Under the pieces are notes generated by a model that did no database searches, was not told where the DNA came from, and saw nothing but the letters and a program-made list of their open reading frames with translations. Below are positions 1,267 to 9,066 of a stretch of 23,118 nucleotides of DNA, in pieces. This DNA is from a virus (Duplodnaviria > Heunggongvirae > Uroviricota > Caudoviricetes), in IMG/VR virus record IMGVR_UViG_2565956626_000019, positions 1 to 23,118 of that record. The stretch is one strand, 5' to 3'. The position numbers were made by a program, and so were the translations under genes. Each line of letters opens with the position of its first letter. The first letter of the stretch is position 1.

Positions 1267-3444
1267 CTATCTAATCCTGAACATTACAATTGGAGCAGAG
1301 CCAGAAGATAAAGGGCCTGACCAATGGTATCTAATTCTGAAAGAAGACTCACTTGGAGTTCCGATAATTTCTATTGGACTTAAAGTTGCACCTTCTGCAG
1401 AACCAGCAGGTTGTCTAAACCCCAACACAGCAATCTGGTTTGGTGTTGGGGCATACAGAAAATTATGCTCAATATCAACCTCGTTAGATTCGCTACCTGT
1501 TGGGTTTGGCATATTCCACTCAATATAATCGTCAGTTGATTTCCCATTTATTGAGTTTCCAACTGTTGCCATAATCGTCCACGTACACGTCCTGTTAAGG
1601 GCTGCCATTCTATCACCTAAAAACCTATTATAACCATTTGCGCCTGAAGTGATTAATCTTATATTCTCTGATGCACATGTGCCAATGCTGTTAAATCCAG
1701 TGCAATCAGAAGAAAGCCCCTTCGCAGTTATATCTACGCTGTTCGCAAAACAAATTGTTGTTGAATTTACTGCATCGCGAATAAGAGCAGAACCCGAAAA
1801 CAAATTATCACACGAACCTCTTATATTATTACCACCGCCGGATAAGTAACATAAATTTCCTTTTATCCTCTTGGATGTAAAAGTAACATTGTTATTGTCA
1901 CCAGTAACAGAAAGAAGCGAGGCTTTAATAGGGGCATTGTCACTCTGCAACTGACCAATTTGGTTTATTGTAACTACATTGTTGTTGCCTGATATAGCTA
2001 TCTGATACCCATCATCATCAATTGAAGGTGAATATCTTTGTGCTTTTATATTGATGTTAAGTGTCCAGATTTTACCGTTATCCAGAAGCATGTCGCGGAG
2101 AGGAGAAATTGAATCGCCAGTGTAGTTATCTGGCATTCTTCCGCACGCCCTGGCTTCTGCGATGGCAACAACACCATGTGCCCCGTTGGTAAACCAGTAA
2201 CCACCTAAACTATTATCAACACACACGTGCCTCGCATTGAATCGGTTAACACCCAGCGTCTTAAATCCATAGCCATAATACACAGCATATACATGGATGT
2301 AATTTATATCGACATGTCCTGTATAAGGAGACTGATTATCAAGAACAATTCCATGACATGATTCTCCTGGATAAAGAAGGCTTTGTTGGCTTGTTGCTGT
2401 TAATCTTGCGCTGTAAGGAGGAAGTCCACACAGGCCAAAAACAATATAATCTAGGTTAATATCACCTGGCCCCCTGAACACAACCCCCTCTCTCCCTGAA
2501 ATTCTTCCCGTTATCCTCACTTCAGAGGCGTGTTCCTGATTATCATGAAATGATCCATACCCCTCTGAATAGAGAGCATGTTCTGCAACATTATTAATCT
2601 CAACGTCAATGTGGTACATGCTGCCGAATATTTTAATGGCAGTTCCATAGTCATTGTTAACAGTGTCGCAAGTTCTCCATGAGTTTGTATCTCTTTGCAA
2701 GTCAAGATAATTACCATCAATGGTCATATCTTTTATGCTAAATCCATATGGCGCATCAGACAGATTTTCCACAACGCCAAAGCCATGTGTTTTAAATACA
2801 TCTGTATTACTACCTTTTTTAACATACAGAAATGTTGCTCTCTTTCCAGAGCCTTTATGATGAACGCCTGTATAAAGAATGATAGGAGAATCTATTAAAT
2901 AAACACCTGGAGGGTAAAATATTTCCCCACCACCATTATTAAAAGCAGCTAATGCTGCGGCATTAATGGCATCAGAATCTGATGTCAATCCATCTGCTTT
3001 AGCTCCATAGTATTGAGGTGTTTTCCTGATTGCATCGTAAACCGTTGAAGCGCCGAAACCGATATATTTACTACCATCTGTACCGCCAATAAGTAATTTA
3101 AACTGATCCGGGTCGTACTTCAACACATTAGGAAAATTGAACTGCTGCGCCCCATATGCATCATAAACAGCCATAGAATGGCCTTGCACAGTTACGAACT
3201 TGGCAATCTGTCCGTTATATACCGGGTAACCAGCAGCGTTAATGATGATTGGTTGAGAAACAGGAACGTGAGAGCCGTCTTCGTTCTCCACATAAACCTG
3301 AATCTGGTTTTCTGGATTTACTGGGTCAGTGTCAATTTTACCGATATAAATTTTACCATTGGCAACTGCTTTAAAAGAACGCGCCATAGTGAAGAGTTGC
3401 GATGGCATGCTTACCACAACATTGGCATTTATTGAATCTGTCAT
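1267..3444 (-). CDS. Tailspike protein: P22-gp9-type N-terminal head-binding domain fused to a divergent beta-helix-like receptor-binding domain.
   Basis: 725 aa. N-terminus [44 protein letters not shown]...[13 protein letters not shown]...[10 protein letters not shown] closely matches my recollection of the P22 tailspike N-terminus. Remainder is Gly/Asn/Ser-rich repeat-like sequence. ATG at 3444 with GGAG 8 nt upstream; TAG stop at 1267-1269. Confidence 0.85.
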
Positions 3445-3576
3445 TTAATTTGCTCCAGATACAAGGAATCACCGCAGCATGGCTACGGTTGGAATTTGTT
3501 ACATACCTAAACGGTACGATTGTTGATTTGTACAGTGGGTTTTACGATGCCATTCCACCCATTTGGTGAGGCATTG

Positions 3577-3834
3577 ATGATGTACAGCAAATACGATGAG
3601 GCGCAGTTCCACTTGAGGCTTACACACGAGTTGCACGCTAAGATTAAGCAGCGTGCAAAAATGAATAACAGGTCTATCAATTCCGAAATTGTGGCTACGA
3701 TGGAAGAATCACTCTCCAAACCATCACCTGTAAGCGGGTATCGTGATGAAGAAGAGAGGCTGGCCTCATTAATCTCGGAACGAGTAAAAGAAGTTGCGGC
3801 TGATATCCTTAGAAAAGAAAAAACCCGCGATTAA
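3577..3834 (+). CDS. mnt: Mnt-like ribbon-helix-helix repressor (Arc/MetJ superfamily with C-terminal oligomerisation helix).
   Basis: Residues NNRSINSEIVATMEESLSKPSPVSGYRDEEERLASLI align with recalled P22 Mnt (NGRSMNSELLQIVQDALSKPSPVTGYRNDAERLA). ATG-ATG at 3577-3582 preceded by GGTGAGG 5 nt upstream. The track ORF from 3520 starts at a TTG and is probably an artefactual extension. Confidence 0.8.
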   Translation: MMYSKYDEAQFHLRLTHELHAKIKQRAKMNNRSINSEIVATMEESLSKPSPVSGYRDEEERLASLISERVKEVAADILRKEKTRD

Positions 3835-3850
3835 GCGGGTTTAGTTGGTT
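3811..3850. terminator. Bidirectional intrinsic terminator shared by convergent mnt (+) and the arc-bro-ant-orf73 operon (-).
   Basis: Stem AAACCCGC (3821-3828), loop GATTAA, stem GCGGGTTT (3835-3842). A-run at 3813-3823 gives UUUUUUCUUUU after the hairpin on the minus strand; T-rich TTTAGTTGGTT follows on the plus strand. Overlaps the mnt stop codon. Confidence 0.65.
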
Positions 3851-4070
3851 AGTTATCAAAAAGTCCGTACGTTTCTTCTTCTTCAGGTGTAAGGGGAAGA
3901 ATCTCTACTCTATCTATAGATACCTTTTCAATGTACCCATGAGGTCTACTTAAAATTAAAGCTCTCTCATGCCACAGAACTCCAAGAATGTGATACCTTC
4001 CAGCATCGCCTTTTACCCTGGCTCTTCCTTTGATTCTTGGAGGCATAATGCCATATTTTTTCTTTGCCAT
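3849..4070 (-). CDS. Hypothetical small basic protein with acidic C-terminal tail (73 aa), translationally coupled to the upstream Ant-like gene.
   Basis: ATG at 4070-4068 overlaps the upstream TAA in a TAATG arrangement. Sequence MAKKKYGIMPPRIKGRARVKGD...LTPEEEETYGLFDN. No family recognised. Confidence 0.5.
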   Translation of the reverse strand: MAKKKYGIMPPRIKGRARVKGDAGRYHILGVLWHERALILSRPHGYIEKVSIDRVEILPLTPEEEETYGLFDN

Positions 4071-4798
4071 TATGCAACATTACTCCCATGAATCAGGTGT
4101 TGTAGTGCTTTAACACCTTCCGCATTGTAGCGGAATGCTTCCACCTGTTTGCTGGAATGCGCAGATTTATCCAGGAAGAACTTCCCGTACTGCTCAGTTT
4201 TGAGGTTGTTTGCGTTAGCAATGCGACCAATCTTGTTGGCCGTTACTCCAAGCTGCTCTGCAACCTCCCCTGCTGAGTAGTAATGCTCTTCTATTGCCGG
4301 AAGAGGTATTGCATTAAAACCAACGAGCGGGTTGATTATACTTGCTGCCGCTGTCTGCTTTGCCTCAGGCGCAAGATTTGGCATCAGATCGAACAGATTG
4401 GTAACAGCTTCAACCGTCATTTTCAGTGTTCGCGCCTGGCGATACTCAACAAGTCCACTCGACGATTTACCGCTTTTAATGTGCGCTTCTTGCATACTTT
4501 CAAGTTGGTCTACAAGTGAGCGGCGAACAGCTTTAGATTCACGAGCAGCCACTCGAAGGGCTTGCTTAATTGACATAACAACTTTTTCAGAAGTTGTCTT
4601 GTTTGATTTTTGAACTACGAAAATTTCGTAGTGCTCACCTTCAAGTTCATCCTTAATGCGTGCAATAAAGTCGTTATTGCGAACTTCTTTTTCCCCGCAC
4701 TGTCTACGAGCATGATTGACCATCTCTAACAGGTACTGGCTATCAATGGTTTTATCCGTGACAACGGATCCGATGTTTGCTACATTCTTAAAAGTCAT
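4070..4798 (-). CDS. Antirepressor-like protein with C-terminal KilAC/ANT-type domain.
   Basis: 242 aa from ATG at 4798, with AAGGAA 6 nt upstream. C-terminal segment YYSAGEVAEQLGVTANKIGRIANANNLKTEQYGKFF resembles the antirepressor KilAC DNA-binding motif. The track ORF to 4885 begins at a TTG. Confidence 0.6.
   Translation of the reverse strand: MTFKNVANIGSVVTDKTIDSQYLLEMVNHARRQCGEKEVRNNDFIARIKDELEGEHYEIFVVQKSNKTTSEKVVMSIKQALRVAARESKAVRRSLVDQLESMQEAHIKSGKSSSGLVEYRQARTLKMTVEAVTNLFDLMPNLAPEAKQTAAASIINPLVGFNAIPLPAIEEHYYSAGEVAEQLGVTANKIGRIANANNLKTEQYGKFFLDKSAHSSKQVEAFRYNAEGVKALQHLIHGSNVA
4758..4786 (+). promoter_or_regulatory. Candidate sigma70 promoter on the plus strand, antisense to the ant-like gene start (P_sar-like).
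   Basis: -35 GTGACA at 4758-4763, 17-nt spacer, -10 TACATT at 4781-4786. Predicted start about 4793, reading across the ant-like start codon (4796-4798) and its Shine-Dalgarno (4805-4810). Confidence 0.4.
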
Positions 4799-4866
4799 TA
4801 GGCATTCCTTATGTGGTAGTAAGGGTGTGACATAGGCCGCCAGCAGCACACTGGCGGTTTTCTTTT
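4793..4866 (+). ncRNA. Candidate ~75-nt antisense RNA (sar-like) covering the ant-like ribosome-binding site, ending at a plus-strand intrinsic terminator.
   Basis: Plus-strand terminator: stem CCGCCAG (4837-4843), loop CAGCACA, stem CTGGCGG (4851-4857), then TTTTCTTTT (4858-4866). It lies inside a minus-strand operon and would not terminate minus-strand transcripts. Architecture mirrors P22 sar in the immI region. Confidence 0.45.
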
Positions 4867-4885
4867 GCGCCGTCCTGGGCACCAA

Positions 4886-5512
4886 TCAATGAATCCATTC
4901 CTCGCCGCGAAGTTTTGCCAGCATTGGCTGAGCGTTCTTTACGACAAAATTGTTGGGATCAAGATTCTTCATTTCACGAAGAAGCGATTTCTTGGTTTCT
5001 TCTGACATGTAGCGAGTCTCATATGCAATATCGTAAATCCTTCCTGAAAGCTCAGAACCAATTTGCTTCATTCCTGGGTAGATGTGTTTGCACATTTGTT
5101 GACTCTTCTCCATCCACAATTGTAAGTAGCAGAGATTAACCAGTTCTTCGTCAGTAAACTGTTTTGCAATCGGTGAGCATTCTGCCTGCCGATCCAAAAT
5201 ATCCAGCACCCAGCGGCGGAACTCTTTGGCTACCGGAGTGCGAGCAAACATCGCGATTAGGTGGGCACCGCGTAGTGAGAAAACTCGCACTTTTTTGCGA
5301 TAATTTCCTGAGGTACTCACTTCGAGTACCTGAGTCATTCCGGCGCTAAACTCATCGCTATACTTGTTATAAATCATTGTTACTGCACGGCTATTTGCAT
5401 ATTTAAGTGCAGATGCAATATTAGATGATGTAAACCAAACACCATGCATATCACGGGTGGGCACCAACTCAACTCCGTGGAAGTTGTAATCTGATTTTGC
5501 TACAATATTCAT
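4886..5512 (-). CDS. BRO-N/AntA-like antirepressor-family protein.
   Basis: 208 aa from ATG at 5512, with AAGGAAA 7 nt upstream. N-terminal region ...GVELVPTRDMHGVWFTSSNIASALKYANSRAV... and ...LIAMFARTPVAKEFRRWVLDIL match the BRO-N/KilA-N pattern. Alternative ATGs at 5542 and 5617 lack good SD. Confidence 0.65.
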   Translation of the reverse strand: MNIVAKSDYNFHGVELVPTRDMHGVWFTSSNIASALKYANSRAVTMIYNKYSDEFSAGMTQVLEVSTSGNYRKKVRVFSLRGAHLIAMFARTPVAKEFRRWVLDILDRQAECSPIAKQFTDEELVNLCYLQLWMEKSQQMCKHIYPGMKQIGSELSGRIYDIAYETRYMSEETKKSLLREMKNLDPNNFVVKNAQPMLAKLRGEEWIH

Positions 5513-5585
5513 GTTAGTTTCCTTGCATACGGTTACTGACATAGAGGCCCGGTTTGTGTTCGCGCACTGCCGGGCTTCACTATTT

Positions 5586-5759
5586 TTATTGGATGACAAC
5601 ATCGCCCTTTGCCTCAAGTTTCATCAATAACTCCATTCGATAAGCTATCTCTGCCTGAATTGACCTATGGCATCTTTTTGCTGATTCGCGGATATGTGAA
5701 TCAACCTTTTCTGTAAAACGAACCTGACGCGGCTTGATGGAAGATATCTTTTCAGTCAT
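5586..5759 (-). CDS. arc: Arc-like ribbon-helix-helix repressor, 57 aa (not in the supplied ORF track because it is under 60 aa).
   Basis: My translation: MTEKISSIKPRQVRFTEKVDSHIRESAKRCHRSIQAEIAYRMELLMKLEAKGDVVIQ. Aligns with recalled P22 Arc (..FNLRWPREVLDLVRKVAEENGRSVNSEIYQRVMESFKKEG). AGGAG 6 nt upstream of ATG (5759-5757); TAA at 5588-5586; first gene of the minus-strand operon. Confidence 0.6.
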   Translation of the reverse strand: MTEKISSIKPRQVRFTEKVDSHIRESAKRCHRSIQAEIAYRMELLMKLEAKGDVVIQ

Positions 5760-5858
5760 TATGCACTCCTGTTTTTGAAAAACTCATAATCTCACTTTTT
5801 GTAGTTTGATTATTCACTCACACTCAGTATGAGTCAATGAATTTTTTATGGTGAACTA
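5760..5858. promoter_or_regulatory. Divergent, overlapping promoter/operator region between the arc operon (-) and the CI-like operon (+).
   Basis: Minus-strand promoter: -35 TTGACT (5837-5832), 17-nt spacer, -10 AATAAT (5814-5809). Plus-strand candidate: -35 TTGATT (5806-5811), -10 TATGAG (5828-5833). Palindrome ACTCAgtaTGAGT (5822-5834) and tandem CACTCA repeats (5815-5826) overlap both promoters. Confidence 0.45.
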
Positions 5859-6500
5859 ATGAATTTTGACGATCAATTCCCATCAAGAGTATCTCTGGCA
5901 AGACAGTCCAGGGGTATGACGCAGGCGCAGTTGTCAAAATTAGCTGGTGTTGTTCAACGTCAAATAGCTGCATACGAGGGTGGTGAGGCTAAACCACGGC
6001 TTCGTGTATTGCAGGCATTAGCCAACGCATTAGGCACTACGGCTGAGTGGTTAGCTCTGGGTGAAGGTCAGGGGCCTGGAACAAAAAACGTCATGCCTGA
6101 CGTTCTGGTAAAGCAAATACCAATCCTCAAACTAGATGAAGTTATGCATTACCTAAACACAGGTGAACATTCATCGTCTAGATTTCATCCGGCAATATAC
6201 AATGTTGGTGACTCTGCATTTGCATTGACTATTGAAGGTGAAGCTATGACTACAAGTTCAGGTATTAGCTTTCCCAGAGGATCAGTTGTCACGTTCAGCC
6301 CTCTAGTAAAAGCTAAAAGCAAAGATTATGTAATAGCATCATTGGATAAAGAGCAAATATTGAGCTTCAAGCAGGTTTACATTGGTGAAATAGAGACAAA
6401 CTTAGTATCCCTAAACCCAATGTATCCTAATATTCTTGTTAGAAATGAAGATGTTAGTATTTTGGCAACCGCAGTTTACCTTGAAATCCCGTTGCTTTGA
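5859..6500 (+). CDS. Lambda CI-like repressor (XRE HTH plus S24/LexA-like C-terminal domain) that appears non-cleavable.
   Basis: 213 aa. HTH GMTQAQLSKLAGVVQRQIAAYEGG. C-domain DSAFALTIEGEAM...DYVIASL...SFKQV...LNPMYPNIL aligns with lambda CI DSAFWLEVEGNSM...DFCIARL...TFKKL...LNPQYPMIP. Ser149 equivalent is Ala; Lys192 equivalent retained; Ala-Gly scissile site position reads Asp-Glu. Confidence 0.8.
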   Translation: MNFDDQFPSRVSLARQSRGMTQAQLSKLAGVVQRQIAAYEGGEAKPRLRVLQALANALGTTAEWLALGEGQGPGTKNVMPDVLVKQIPILKLDEVMHYLNTGEHSSSRFHPAIYNVGDSAFALTIEGEAMTTSSGISFPRGSVVTFSPLVKAKSKDYVIASLDKEQILSFKQVYIGEIETNLVSLNPMYPNILVRNEDVSILATAVYLEIPLL

Positions 6501-6564
6501 TATCCTTTAGGAAGCGACACATTATCATCCGGTGTTCTGCTCAAAACTAAGGAGTGGCTACTCA

Positions 6565-7203
6565 ATGAAAAAAATAGATATATATAGCGATACATCAGCC
6601 TATGTCATAGGCTCATTGGGTTTTTTAATTTTTTTTGTTTGGCAGTACCAGTCACTATCTCCAGGATGGAGATTTTTGGGGATGTCTTTGATATCACTTG
6701 GTGCAGGAATAGCAACGCAGGTGTTGATGTATCTCTTTAATGGATGGATCTCAAAAAGAGTTGAGAAAAAAAGAGCTACTTCAATATGTAGAAGCCTAGC
6801 TATTCCAGAAGACTCTACAGATCAGGATGATATTGCAAAATGTTGGCGGTATATGATTGCAAGATACTCAAATGAGTTACTGGCAAACAGACTGTCCGAC
6901 TTAATCGGGATCGTAGTTACCTCTGTTGGAACAATCATCAGTATAGGGATATCAATTTGGTATGTCGGGATGATTGTCTATTTTGTTTGGAATAGAGACT
7001 TCAATGAACCTTCCCTTCTTTTTATACCTTTATTTTTCAGGGTATTAGCATTCATATGTGAGTTATTGCTCTCTTTTTTCTGCAATGTTTTGTTCAACAG
7101 ATACCCAGGTGAAGCAAGAAAGTTTAATAAAAACTATGATGAGTTAAGGAGAACAGATCCTTTTCTATCAAGCAAAGAGTTCCGCGATTCCATTCGCAAT
7201 TAA
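6565..7203 (+). CDS. Multi-pass inner-membrane protein (4-5 predicted TM helices), co-operonic with the CI-like gene; function unknown (exclusion/immunity candidate).
   Basis: 212 aa from ATG at 6565, with AAGGAG 10 nt upstream. Hydrophobic segments AYVIGSLGFLIFFVWQY, FLGMSLISLGAGIATQVLMYLF, LIGIVVTSVGTIISIGISIWYVGMIVYFVW, LLFIPLFFRVLAFICELLLSFFCNVLF. Visibly AT-rich. Track ORF start at 6532 is an extension. Confidence 0.6.
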   Translation: MKKIDIYSDTSAYVIGSLGFLIFFVWQYQSLSPGWRFLGMSLISLGAGIATQVLMYLFNGWISKRVEKKRATSICRSLAIPEDSTDQDDIAKCWRYMIARYSNELLANRLSDLIGIVVTSVGTIISIGISIWYVGMIVYFVWNRDFNEPSLLFIPLFFRVLAFICELLLSFFCNVLFNRYPGEARKFNKNYDELRRTDPFLSSKEFRDSIRN

Positions 7204-7224
7204 CAACATCCATGACATCAACCC

Positions 7225-9066
7225 TTAGCGATCAGTTGCATCATTGGCAAGTATTGGTCTGATGGCATTTGCGGCGTTATTCAGCGCTCTTTCATAGGCT
7301 GGCGTTCCAGCTTTAGTGTTTGCCAGACGTAAGAGCGCATTCCTTGCTGCTTTGGACTCATACAAGCGCATCATTGCACCGAAACCAGCCTCAAGCCCCA
7401 TTGATACGCCAAGAGTCGCAGTTGCGCCAATCGTCCTTATCCTGTTGGCTTGCGATTGCCCCGTCTGAGTTACTACATTTGCGGTGTCTGACCTTGCTGT
7501 TTGCTGTAGAACTTCATTAAGAGCATCAAGTTCTTTCATGTGCTTTCCAGAAAAAATAGTGTTGTAAATTTCACCTCCTGACTGAGATTTCAGCTTATTA
7601 ACTTCAGTGATGAACTTGGCTGGAGAGTCGCCGGCCTTTTCCGCTATTTTGCTGACGTAAGCTGCACGCATAGCATCTTTCCCTTTATCATCCAGTGCGC
7701 TCCAGATTCGTTTCACGTCAGATGGTTTTCTGCTTAATACAACGGTATTTATAAGTTCAGGACTGGCTTCACTGCTTGCCTTGTTGAGCTTGTTGGCAAT
7801 GTTTTTATTAAGCACCTTATTATAAACGTTTGCATAATCGGAATTTGCTTTAAGGTATTTTGCTGCGTCTGATGCACCGAGGTTTTTAGCAACTGCGTTA
7901 CGAAGGTCTTTTGACATTGCATTCTCTACCATATTGGTAGCTGCTTTTGCCTGGTTGGGGAAGACCATAGCATCTCCCTGAACATTAGATCTAAATGCTG
8001 TTCTGTGCTGACGCAAGAGATCAAACGTAACATCCAAATCAGTTGCAGGGTTTGCTAATTCTTCACGTAGGTTACGCAAGGATGTAAGCAGGCTTTGATT
8101 GGCAGACGTCCCAAGCCGTTCCTGTCTTGCGATCGCTGTATTCAGAGCATTCATGGTATTTGTGGTATCAACTGCGGCATTACCCATTTTATTGGTGACG
8201 TCATTGATAACAGCGCCAGCGGCATCCTTCCGCCCCCTTAACGTGGTGGTAAGAGATTTCACCACATCATCAGGGTTGTACTCACCAAAACGGTCAAAAT
8301 AATTGCTTACCAGTTTACTACGCGTTGCATATTGCTCCGCTCTCTTTGAGCCTGTCCCGAGCAAAGCCCCCTCGGCATCCTGAGTAAGGCCACGAGTGAA
8401 AGCATTTTTCGGCGGGATAACATCAGATGTCATTGGTGTCACGCCCATCGATTCTGATGTGGCAATTTTCTTCGCCACTTCTGGCGCAATATCACCTTTT
8501 ATAGCCGTTATTCCACGCCCTATTCCCTTTGCTGCTGCGGAAAGAACACCCTGAGCGGCAAGGTTAACTCCGGCATTTTTGGCTGCATTTTGTGCGAAAT
8601 CGCCTTTCTGATTTGCGGCCTCTGCCAGTGATCCAATAGCCATGCTTCCTGCCATTCCAACTCCTGGAACTAAATACCCGCCAATTGTTTCTCCAGCTTG
8701 CGCATAAGGGTCTGTTGGTCGATCTACTGGACGATAAACATCATCCAAAACCTTGGGGCCACCAAGACCCTGGCTGATTGCATTAATCAGACTTGCGCCA
8801 CCCTGCAATACGTCAAATGGTATGTTTACCAGACCACGGCCAGCCTGTTCTGCAATTTGCCCTGCACTTTGACCACCAGTGAGCCAATCGCCAGCTTGTT
8901 GCATCAATGATGGTTCTTCACGTGCTGGTTCATTATTGGCCTGATTAACTGTTTGTTGCTGAACAGCCTGACCAGCAAAATACTCATCAATGGCGGTGCC
9001 AATATCTTCCGTGCTCGTACCATCAGGAAAGGTAAATGTCTTACCGTTTGCAGTTACTTTCATCAT
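7225..9066 (-). CDS. Ejection (pilot/E) protein, P22 gp16-like.
   Basis: 613 aa; size and position match P22 gp16 (the last gene before the accessory region). ATG pair at 9066/9063 overlaps the upstream stop. Confidence 0.65.

Follow-up and report, generated by a model that had tools for sequence, protein, structure and literature searches.

How are the antirepressor genes of the Escherichia coli HS prophage kept under control? This P22-like prophage was named HS-1 by Villafane et al. in 2008 (PMC2629481), who reported antirepressor genes in it with arc apparently absent, and argued on this basis that the control of the antirepressor must differ from that of P22. The question is taken up here for a gap of 99 nucleotides (nt), positions 5760-5858 of a 23,118-nt stretch of viral DNA (IMG/VR record IMGVR_UViG_2565956626_000019; this whole stretch is called the window hereafter). 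The gap lies between an Arc-like and a CI-like gene and is the control region under study. Sequence comparison indicates that it belongs to a self-contained, mobile antirepressor module, and that the region is a variant of the P22 immI type with a repressor gene of the lambda/434 type in the place of mnt. It is fairly probable that the gap works as the control region of this module in the manner of P22 immI, two conserved blocks (5823-5839 and 5760-5798) being putative repressor-binding sites. A probable remote Arc-like gene is found where the 2008 study saw apparently no arc (PMC2629481).

The identity of the prophage follows from positions 5560-6520, which match the E. coli HS chromosome without a difference (100% identity) and are shared at 98.5% identity or more by 28 further E. 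coli genomes. The top phage match is Escherichia phage JEP4 (Lederbergvirus, P22-like), at 95%. JEP4 shows 0/99 differences across the gap, an identity that is uninformative because the flanks are themselves about 98.5% identical. The orientation of the window is the reverse of the usual P22 map, and the module is inserted between the gp16-like gene (7225-9066, minus strand) and the tailspike gene (1267-3444, minus strand). This slot corresponds to the 'ant moron' located between gene 16 and the tailspike gene by Villafane et al. (PMC2629481). Yersinia genomes and numerous viral contigs encode relatives of the CI-like protein (35-46% identity), and a common layout is observed in all of them except the most distant, partial matches (L110-L114): the CI-like gene faces an Arc-like gene of 56-58 amino acids (aa) and Ant across about 100 nt. 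The contexts of the module are P22-like in some cases and adjoin tape-measure or other tail genes in others. The Arc-like protein has homologues in Salmonella, Klebsiella, Serratia, Hafnia, Enterobacter, Atlantibacter and Yersinia, and the module itself is carried in several phage backgrounds by Escherichia, Salmonella, Klebsiella, Yersinia, Serratia, Hafnia and Enterobacter. Given this spread over phage backgrounds and genera, a single characterization would annotate many prophages. Antirepressor modules decide when a prophage awakens, and their action can extend in trans to further prophages of the same cell. A literature search found no paper describing a CI-like/Arc-like antirepressor module. 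Identity as a defence system was considered and rejected, PADLOC giving generic helix-turn-helix (HTH) matches only.

Promoters of the divergent region

All the elements named in an initial annotation of this DNA are present at the positions it gave them, and its general proposal, that a control region separates two divergent repressor genes, is supported by the present analysis. The minus-strand promoter that it assigned to arc combines a -35 hexamer TTGACT (5837-5832) and a -10 hexamer AATAAT (5814-5809) with a spacing of 17 nt. This is the sole site scoring 10/12 in the interval 3300-7300, and four sites of at least 10/12 exist in the whole window; judged by dinucleotide shuffles of the 99 nt alone, the promoter is marginal (P about 0.065 per strand). 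Its position is fixed in evolution: of 20 diverse relatives, 19 have a minus-strand promoter scoring 8-11/12 at a distance of 20-23 nt from the ATG of the CI-like gene, and the sequence G.GTCAA of the -35 region is invariant family-wide. On this comparative evidence, the promoter is taken to be real and strong and to drive the Arc-like/ant operon, as had been proposed.

A finer footprint was obtained within subgroup A1, made up of the window and of L116, L119, L121 and L127, relatives fetched through their Arc-like homologues. In this subgroup the DNA-binding domains of the CI-like proteins are near-identical and the DNA is well diverged, with a third-codon identity to L119, L121 and L127 of 50-60% in arc and 36-43% in the CI-like gene; identities given below for parts of the gap refer to these same three relatives. 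The sequence TGAGTCAATG at the -35 (5830-5839) is identical at 10/10 positions in all divergent comparisons, and the -10 segment GATTATT (5808-5814) is invariant in the subgroup (7/7). Only 3-5 of 9 positions are kept in the stretch 5799-5807, which contains the transcription start predicted from the -10 hexamer (about 5802). Upstream of the -35, 16 of the 19 bases at 5840-5858 are retained, and the A/T-rich stretch 5838-5849, which reads AAAAAATTCA on the minus strand and adjoins the -35, is possibly an UP-element-like sequence. The same flank shows an exact 10-nt direct repeat, AATGAATTTT, at 5836-5845 and 5858-5867, 22 nt apart. The second copy includes the start codon of the CI-like gene and relatives carry ATGA(A/G)TTTT at both sites; the repeat could be a coincidence between an A/T-rich promoter flank and a conserved M-N/S-F N-terminus.

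The plus-strand promoter proposed for the CI-like gene, TTGATT-16-TATGAG (5806-5811 and 5828-5833), could not be upheld as such. It scores 8/12 and has no T at the final -10 position, 93% of shuffled sequences contain an equal or better site, and it was not called by the promoter scan of 3300-7300. In close relatives the -10 is replaced by AATGAG, GATGAG or GGTGAG and the -35 by TGGATT, and no consistent plus-strand candidate was found across 20 family representatives. The interleaved layout described by the initial annotation is nevertheless that of P22, despite this unsupportive sequence. Indeed, in the P22 immI record the -35 and -10 of Pant occupy 302-307 and 325-330, and those of Pmnt, on the other strand, 330-335 and 307-312, so that each -10 abuts or overlaps the -35 of the opposite promoter. 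The candidate pair in the window has the same geometry, with the plus-strand member in a position analogous to Pmnt, and the CI-like ATG is 22 nt from the minus-strand -35, compared to 23 nt for the mnt ATG and Pant. Since the CI-like gene has a Shine-Dalgarno sequence GGTGA at 5850-5854 (GGTG being conserved in relatives), any plus-strand start must lie upstream of about 5848.

The conserved blocks of the gap

Two repeats had been highlighted in the promoter spacer, a palindrome of 13 base pairs (bp), ACTCAgtaTGAGT (5822-5834), and a tandem pair of CACTCA (5815-5826). Their conservation within subgroup A1 is uneven. CTCA (5823-5826) and TGAG (5830-5833) are kept in four of the five members, L116 having CTCG, while the three bases between them differ in every member (GTA, GAA, AGA, TGG, TAA). 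The first CACTCA copy with the next 2 nt (5815-5822) is replaced by GACCGCGC, GACTGCAT or GATGCTTT in relatives whose repressors have near-identical DNA-binding domains, and the spacer segment 5815-5829 as a whole retains 7/15 identical positions (about 47%). Because the arms are kept and both the centre and the first CACTCA vary, the conserved element is the 11-bp dyad CTCA-N3-TGAG (5823-5833) and not the palindrome or the tandem repeat. The core of the palindrome, overlapping the -35 and the spacer, therefore stands as a candidate operator; its full 13-bp extent and the tandem repeat, whose first copy is lost, do not. In P22, the Arc operator is located between the -35 and the -10 of Pant, and the CTCA-N3-TGAG dyad lies roughly at the same place.

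The second block is the arc leader (5760-5798, minus strand, predicted +4 to +43), a candidate downstream operator. With 36-37 of 39 positions identical (92-95%), it is the best-conserved non-coding element of the gap, passed over in the initial annotation together with its dyad, the binomial probability of at least 36/39 at p = 0.5 being about 2e-8. It contains the Shine-Dalgarno sequence of arc (5766-5770), the heptamer ACTCATA (5782-5788), a second CTCA (5791-5794) and a 17-bp dyad TTTTGA-N5-TCATAA (5773-5789) that is perfect (TTATGA-N5-TCATAA) in L119 and L121. The heptamer is an inverted copy of 5828-5834, in the -35 site; ACTCATA is present four times in 23 kb, two of these copies being in the gap. 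The word TATGAGTTTT of the leader is common to three CI-like subgroups, and subgroup A3 has the same TATGA-N5-TCATA dyad in the spacer adjoining the -35. A mini open reading frame (ORF) at the leader ATGAGT was examined by eye and discarded as coding sequence, being out of frame or truncated in relatives.

It must be asked whether these repeats mean anything beyond the promoter. All of them, palindrome, tandem repeat and inverted heptamers alike, might have arisen by chance in an A/T-rich gap, the promoter alone having a function and the bases near its -35 being conserved for promoter strength. In the window alone, no repeat beats shuffled controls: inverted-repeat arms at least as long as the observed maximum have a P of 0.18, the fourfold occurrence of ACTCA in the gap a family-wise P of 0.09, and repeated hexamers a P of 0.49, even if ACTCA/TGAGT is about 20 times commoner in the gap than the window average of 0.2 copies per 99 nt. 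This explanation also accommodates the unconserved tandem CACTCA and the location of TGAG next to the -35. It does not account, however, for the CTCA lying 5 nt into the spacer, which is kept in four of five members while its neighbours are randomized, at a place where sigma-70 has no base preference, nor for the 39-nt leader, which is located downstream of the start and conserved at 92-95% as against about 50% at silent sites. Two family-wide results also argue against it. Repeated hexamers of the ACTCAT, CATGAG, ATTGAG and ATGAAG kind number 124 against 68.7 expected (P <0.001), and the -35 word matches the inverted leader word better within genomes than between genomes (permutation P 0.002). 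A purely promoter-based explanation is considered quite unlikely.

A second possibility is that the leader acts as RNA, in translational control or as an antisense target, with the -35-proximal dyad as the only site of DNA-level control. In its favour, the leader is part of the transcript and contains the ribosome-binding site; moreover, P22 immI uses the antisense sar RNA and the module keeps the homologous arc-ant spacer. RNA folding, however, gave no stable or unusual structure (z = 0.41 and -1.29 for the leader and the whole gap, respectively), and the leader has no Rfam match, the search of 3300-7300 returning just a non-significant symR-like match in the arc-ant spacer. The inverted heptamer shared with the -35 site and the occurrence of the same dyad in the untranscribed spacer of A3 suggest recognition at the DNA level instead. 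Action of the leader as RNA is, on balance, unlikely.

Several other arrangements were tried and rejected. A single operator geometry for the whole family, either a 13-bp ACNC-N5-GNGT or a 17-bp TATGA-N5-TCATA, does not hold across subgroups, and the same is true of direct-repeat phasing at 8 bp or 10-11 bp and of looping between the two sites. In the relative L086 (IMGVR_UViG_2907842514_000001), the -35 region forms a 19-bp palindrome, TTGACACtttatGTGTCAA, which creates a perfect TTGACA on each strand; such an arrangement is absent from the window. Among the members of the most distant subgroup (L104, L105 and L107), the repeated word is ACTTCAT, present as two or three direct repeats spaced 10-11 bp apart and once more in inverted orientation, and in L104 the -35 is the centre of a perfect 17-bp palindrome, CTTCATTGTCAATGAAG.

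The two repressors and the proposed circuit

The gene heading the antirepressor operon (5586-5759, minus strand) has an AGGAG Shine-Dalgarno sequence 6 nt upstream and encodes a protein of 57 aa assigned to PHROG 10182, listed as 'unknown function'. BLASTP gave no match between this protein and P22 Arc. A family profile built from 15 diverse members nevertheless retrieved only ribbon-helix-helix proteins as top matches in the PDB, with E-values of 7e-5 for pArc, 1e-4 for AmrZ, 3e-3 for Arc, 7e-3 for the CopG family and 9e-3 for Mnt. The alignment to P22 Arc by hhalign (probability 77%, E 2e-5) places beta-strand on beta-strand. The Pfam family Arc is matched by eight of the 15 members, the window member falling below the curated cut-off. 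The AlphaFold2 (AF2) monomer is confident and shows one continuous long helix; it was not used for a fold search and is not decisive on the fold, because ribbon-helix-helix proteins are obligate intertwined dimers. The 57-aa protein is therefore probably a remote Arc-like protein of the ribbon-helix-helix class, and the label 'arc' given initially holds at the family level.

The label 'CI-like' holds at the same level for the divergent gene (5859-6500, plus strand), whose product combines a 434-type HTH domain and an S24 (LexA/CI) C-terminal domain. Pfam reports HTH_3 (9e-13) and Peptidase_S24 (1e-12), and the N-terminal domain matches the 434 repressor in the PDB (E 4e-6). Alignment of the C-terminal domain to lambda CI (EGEAM as against EGNSM) shows that the catalytic Ser149 of lambda CI is replaced here by Ala, at residue 129, the Lys being kept; the initial annotation did not mention this change. 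Self-cleavage of the HS protein is thus unlikely. No AG or CG was found in the linker, and no such cleavage site is conserved in relatives. Both Ser and Lys are present in 26 of 38 distinct CI-like relatives. The closest relatives with diverged DNA, L119 (GDSM) and L121 (GESM), keep the Ser in otherwise near-identical proteins, while L116 and L127 share the Ala; on this distribution, the loss of self-cleavage looks recent. The JEP4 record (L001, 5505-6074) annotates the gene as 'repressor protein C2' and places its start 24 codons further downstream, a choice that would cost the HTH domain its first helix. The longer form used here is supported by the N-terminus MNFDD..RV, which is conserved throughout the family.

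The next question is that of the protein recognizing each block. The site sets are found to accompany the CI-like gene. L094 and L086 have Arc-like proteins that are 98% identical and different site sets; conversely, L086 and L095 have Arc-like proteins of 63% identity, CI-like N-terminal domains of 87% identity, and two sites that are 97% and 89% identical. Similarly, three CI-like subgroups share one Arc-like beta-strand (KPRQVRF) and have three different -35-proximal dyads. A global correlation of site similarity with the similarity of either the Arc-like or the CI-like protein gives about equal rho. Residue 33 of the CI-like protein also varies with the base preceding GTCAA (Arg with T in 7/7, non-Arg with A in 12/13); this correlation is not relied upon, because this base turns TTGACT into TTGACA and because the samples are related. 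On the comparisons of site sets and dyads between relatives, together with the family-wide repeat statistics given above, we lean towards recognition of the -35-proximal dyad by the CI-like protein. The leader may be used by the Arc-like protein, or by the Arc-like and CI-like proteins together.

The proposed circuit is as follows. The strong sigma-70 promoter of the minus strand would transcribe the Arc-like gene, the two antirepressor genes and a small ORF. In the lysogen, the divergent CI-like protein would stand in for Mnt and keep this operon silent. In P22, Pmnt is a weak promoter that is favoured when the strong Pant is silenced; in the same way, silencing of the strong promoter may here free RNA polymerase for a putative weak promoter of the CI-like gene itself. 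After infection, the Arc-like protein, as the first product of the operon, would feed back to shut the promoter, as P22 Arc does. Devoid of the catalytic Ser, the HS CI-like protein would be a stable repressor that is not inactivated by RecA. The bistable switch evoked in the initial annotation is a reasonable analogy for such a circuit.

Several observations weigh against this immI-like circuit. The fact that site sets follow the CI-like gene could result from linkage and a few recombination events, and promoter constraint alone could conserve TGAG, adjoining as it does the -35. The geometry of the dyad varies across the family, with a length of 11 bp in the present gap as against 17 bp in A3 and about 18 bp in A2, and 11 bp is short for an HTH dimer. 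The Arc-like fold is deduced from profile matches, with an AF2 monomer that does not display the ribbon-helix-helix. Finally, the leader block could exert its effect in the transcript and not in the DNA, and no convincing plus-strand promoter was found for the CI-like gene.

A bolder extension can be envisaged, on a tentative footing. In most relatives, the CI-like protein with Ser and Lys would be cleaved, in response to RecA or another signal and at a non-canonical site, which would release the antirepressors to inactivate the main prophage repressor; the Ser to Ala allele of HS, shared with L116 and L127, would then be a natural lock. Separately, the leader would be a new kind of operator used jointly by HTH-S24 and ribbon-helix-helix proteins. 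The coexistence of Ser-intact and Ser to Ala alleles constitutes a natural test of signal sensing by the module.

Two further explanations concern the nature of the repressor. The CI-like and Arc-like proteins might form an independent bistable immunity switch in the style of lambda CI and Cro, with a multipartite operator, self-activation and SOS cleavage. A CI-family gene does face the gene of a small DNA-binding protein, and most relatives keep the Ser/Lys pair. This explanation is nonetheless very unlikely: the catalytic Ser is an Ala here, the linker has no Ala-Gly, three spaced 17-bp operators are absent, the operon encodes antirepressors instead of lytic genes, and the module is a late-region moron in several phage types.

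Alternatively, the host LexA protein would control the antirepressor promoter, the CI-like protein being irrelevant at this site. Antirepressors under LexA control are a known pattern (PMC3121763). Examples are GfoA/GfhA of Gifsy, Ant of SPC32H, Tum of 186 and AntC of N15. A LexA-box search of 5700-5900 gave, however, a best core match of 5-6/8 and 10/20 overall. In the absence of a LexA box, control by the host LexA is unlikely, and every relative carries its own divergent repressor gene; taken as a whole, this last explanation is hardly credible.

Known systems and neighbouring genes

The immI-type circuit proposed here can be set against the systems that it most resembles. The P22 immI region has in common with it the slot between gene 16 and the tailspike gene, an operon in which a small Arc-family gene precedes ant, and a divergent maintenance-repressor gene about 90-100 nt away whose ATG is 22-23 nt from the -35 of the strong ant promoter. 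In P22 the Arc operator lies in the Pant spacer and the Mnt operator at the transcription start; here, candidate sites occupy the spacer and the stretch that follows the start. The arc-ant spacer is homologous to the sar region. The differences are equally clear. The divergent gene encodes a 434/lambda-type HTH+S24 protein here and not the ribbon-helix-helix tetramer Mnt, the Arc-like protein has no BLAST match to P22 Arc, and neither O-arc-like nor O-mnt-like sequences of P22 were found in the search. Moreover, the two candidate sites of the module share a word whereas the two P22 operators are unrelated, the equivalent of Pmnt is unrecognizable, and the true mnt gene lies elsewhere in the moron.

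With the immC regions of lambda, 434 and P22, the module shares a CI-family repressor gene divergent from the gene of a small DNA-binding protein across a gap of about 100 nt containing dyads. It differs from them in that this partner is probably a ribbon-helix-helix protein and not an HTH Cro, the operator is not tripartite, the catalytic Ser is lost, and the operon encodes antirepressors instead of early lytic genes. The LexA-controlled antirepressors mentioned above offer the same logic, an S24-family repressor silencing an antirepressor at its promoter (as proposed here) and the antirepressor relaying a signal to the main prophage repressor; the repressor of the module, however, is encoded by the phage beside its target, there is no LexA box, and the protein is predicted to be non-cleaving. 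Lastly, Silpe et al. (PMC10432266) described in 2023 Vibrio phage induction modules composed of a transcription factor and a small protein. These are likewise accessory regulatory modules located away from the main immunity region and controlling an inactivator of the master repressor, with the difference that the Vibrio factor activates a neighbouring small ORF while the present layout indicates repression of BRO/Ant antirepressors.

Downstream of the Arc-like gene, the arc-ant intercistronic region (5513-5585) is homologous, on the plus strand, to the P22 spacer encoding the antisense sar RNA. The alignment with P22 has 60 invariant columns, and the features shared include a hairpin of the GAAGCCC...GGGCTTC type, GTCAGTAA and the ant start; a T-run follows the hairpin on the plus strand, and no promoter for a sar-like RNA was identified. 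Ant itself (4886-5512, minus strand) has BRO-N and P22_AR_C domains according to Pfam and belongs to PHROG 245 (3e-53). It is followed by a second antirepressor-family gene (4070-4801, minus strand; PHROG 1726 'anti-repressor', 1e-100), exchanged in relatives for ORF6N, pRha or P22_AR_N types. At the junction of the two genes, the plus strand shows a terminator-like hairpin with a T-run (4834-4860), in antisense orientation to the antirepressor operon; the minus strand has no T-run there. A conserved small ORF of 73 aa with no assigned function (3849-4070, minus strand) comes after the two antirepressor genes. On the other side of the control region, the CI-like gene is followed by a SieA-like gene (6562-7203, plus strand).

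The initial annotation also listed an Mnt-like protein among the possible occupants of the gap. As a family label this is correct: the gene at 3580-3834 (plus strand) matches the Pfam family Arc (4e-15) and its product is 46.6% identical to P22 Mnt. The gene converges on the ant operon, however, and its divergent neighbour is the tailspike gene, not arc. No mnt homologue was found within 7 kb in relatives with the same conserved blocks, and tblastn located Mnt homologues in P22-like contexts only; in L129-L131, an A1-type module runs directly into the tailspike gene without mnt. The blocks are thus independent of Mnt, which is absent from most of the relatives that keep them, and an action of Mnt at 5760-5858 is unlikely. 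The gap of about 135 nt between the mnt homologue and the tailspike gene (3445-3579) contains a 20-bp near-dyad, GTACGATTGTTGATTTGTAC, at 3514-3533; this gap may be the site of action of Mnt, a remnant of a Pmnt/Pant-type region that now faces the tailspike gene.

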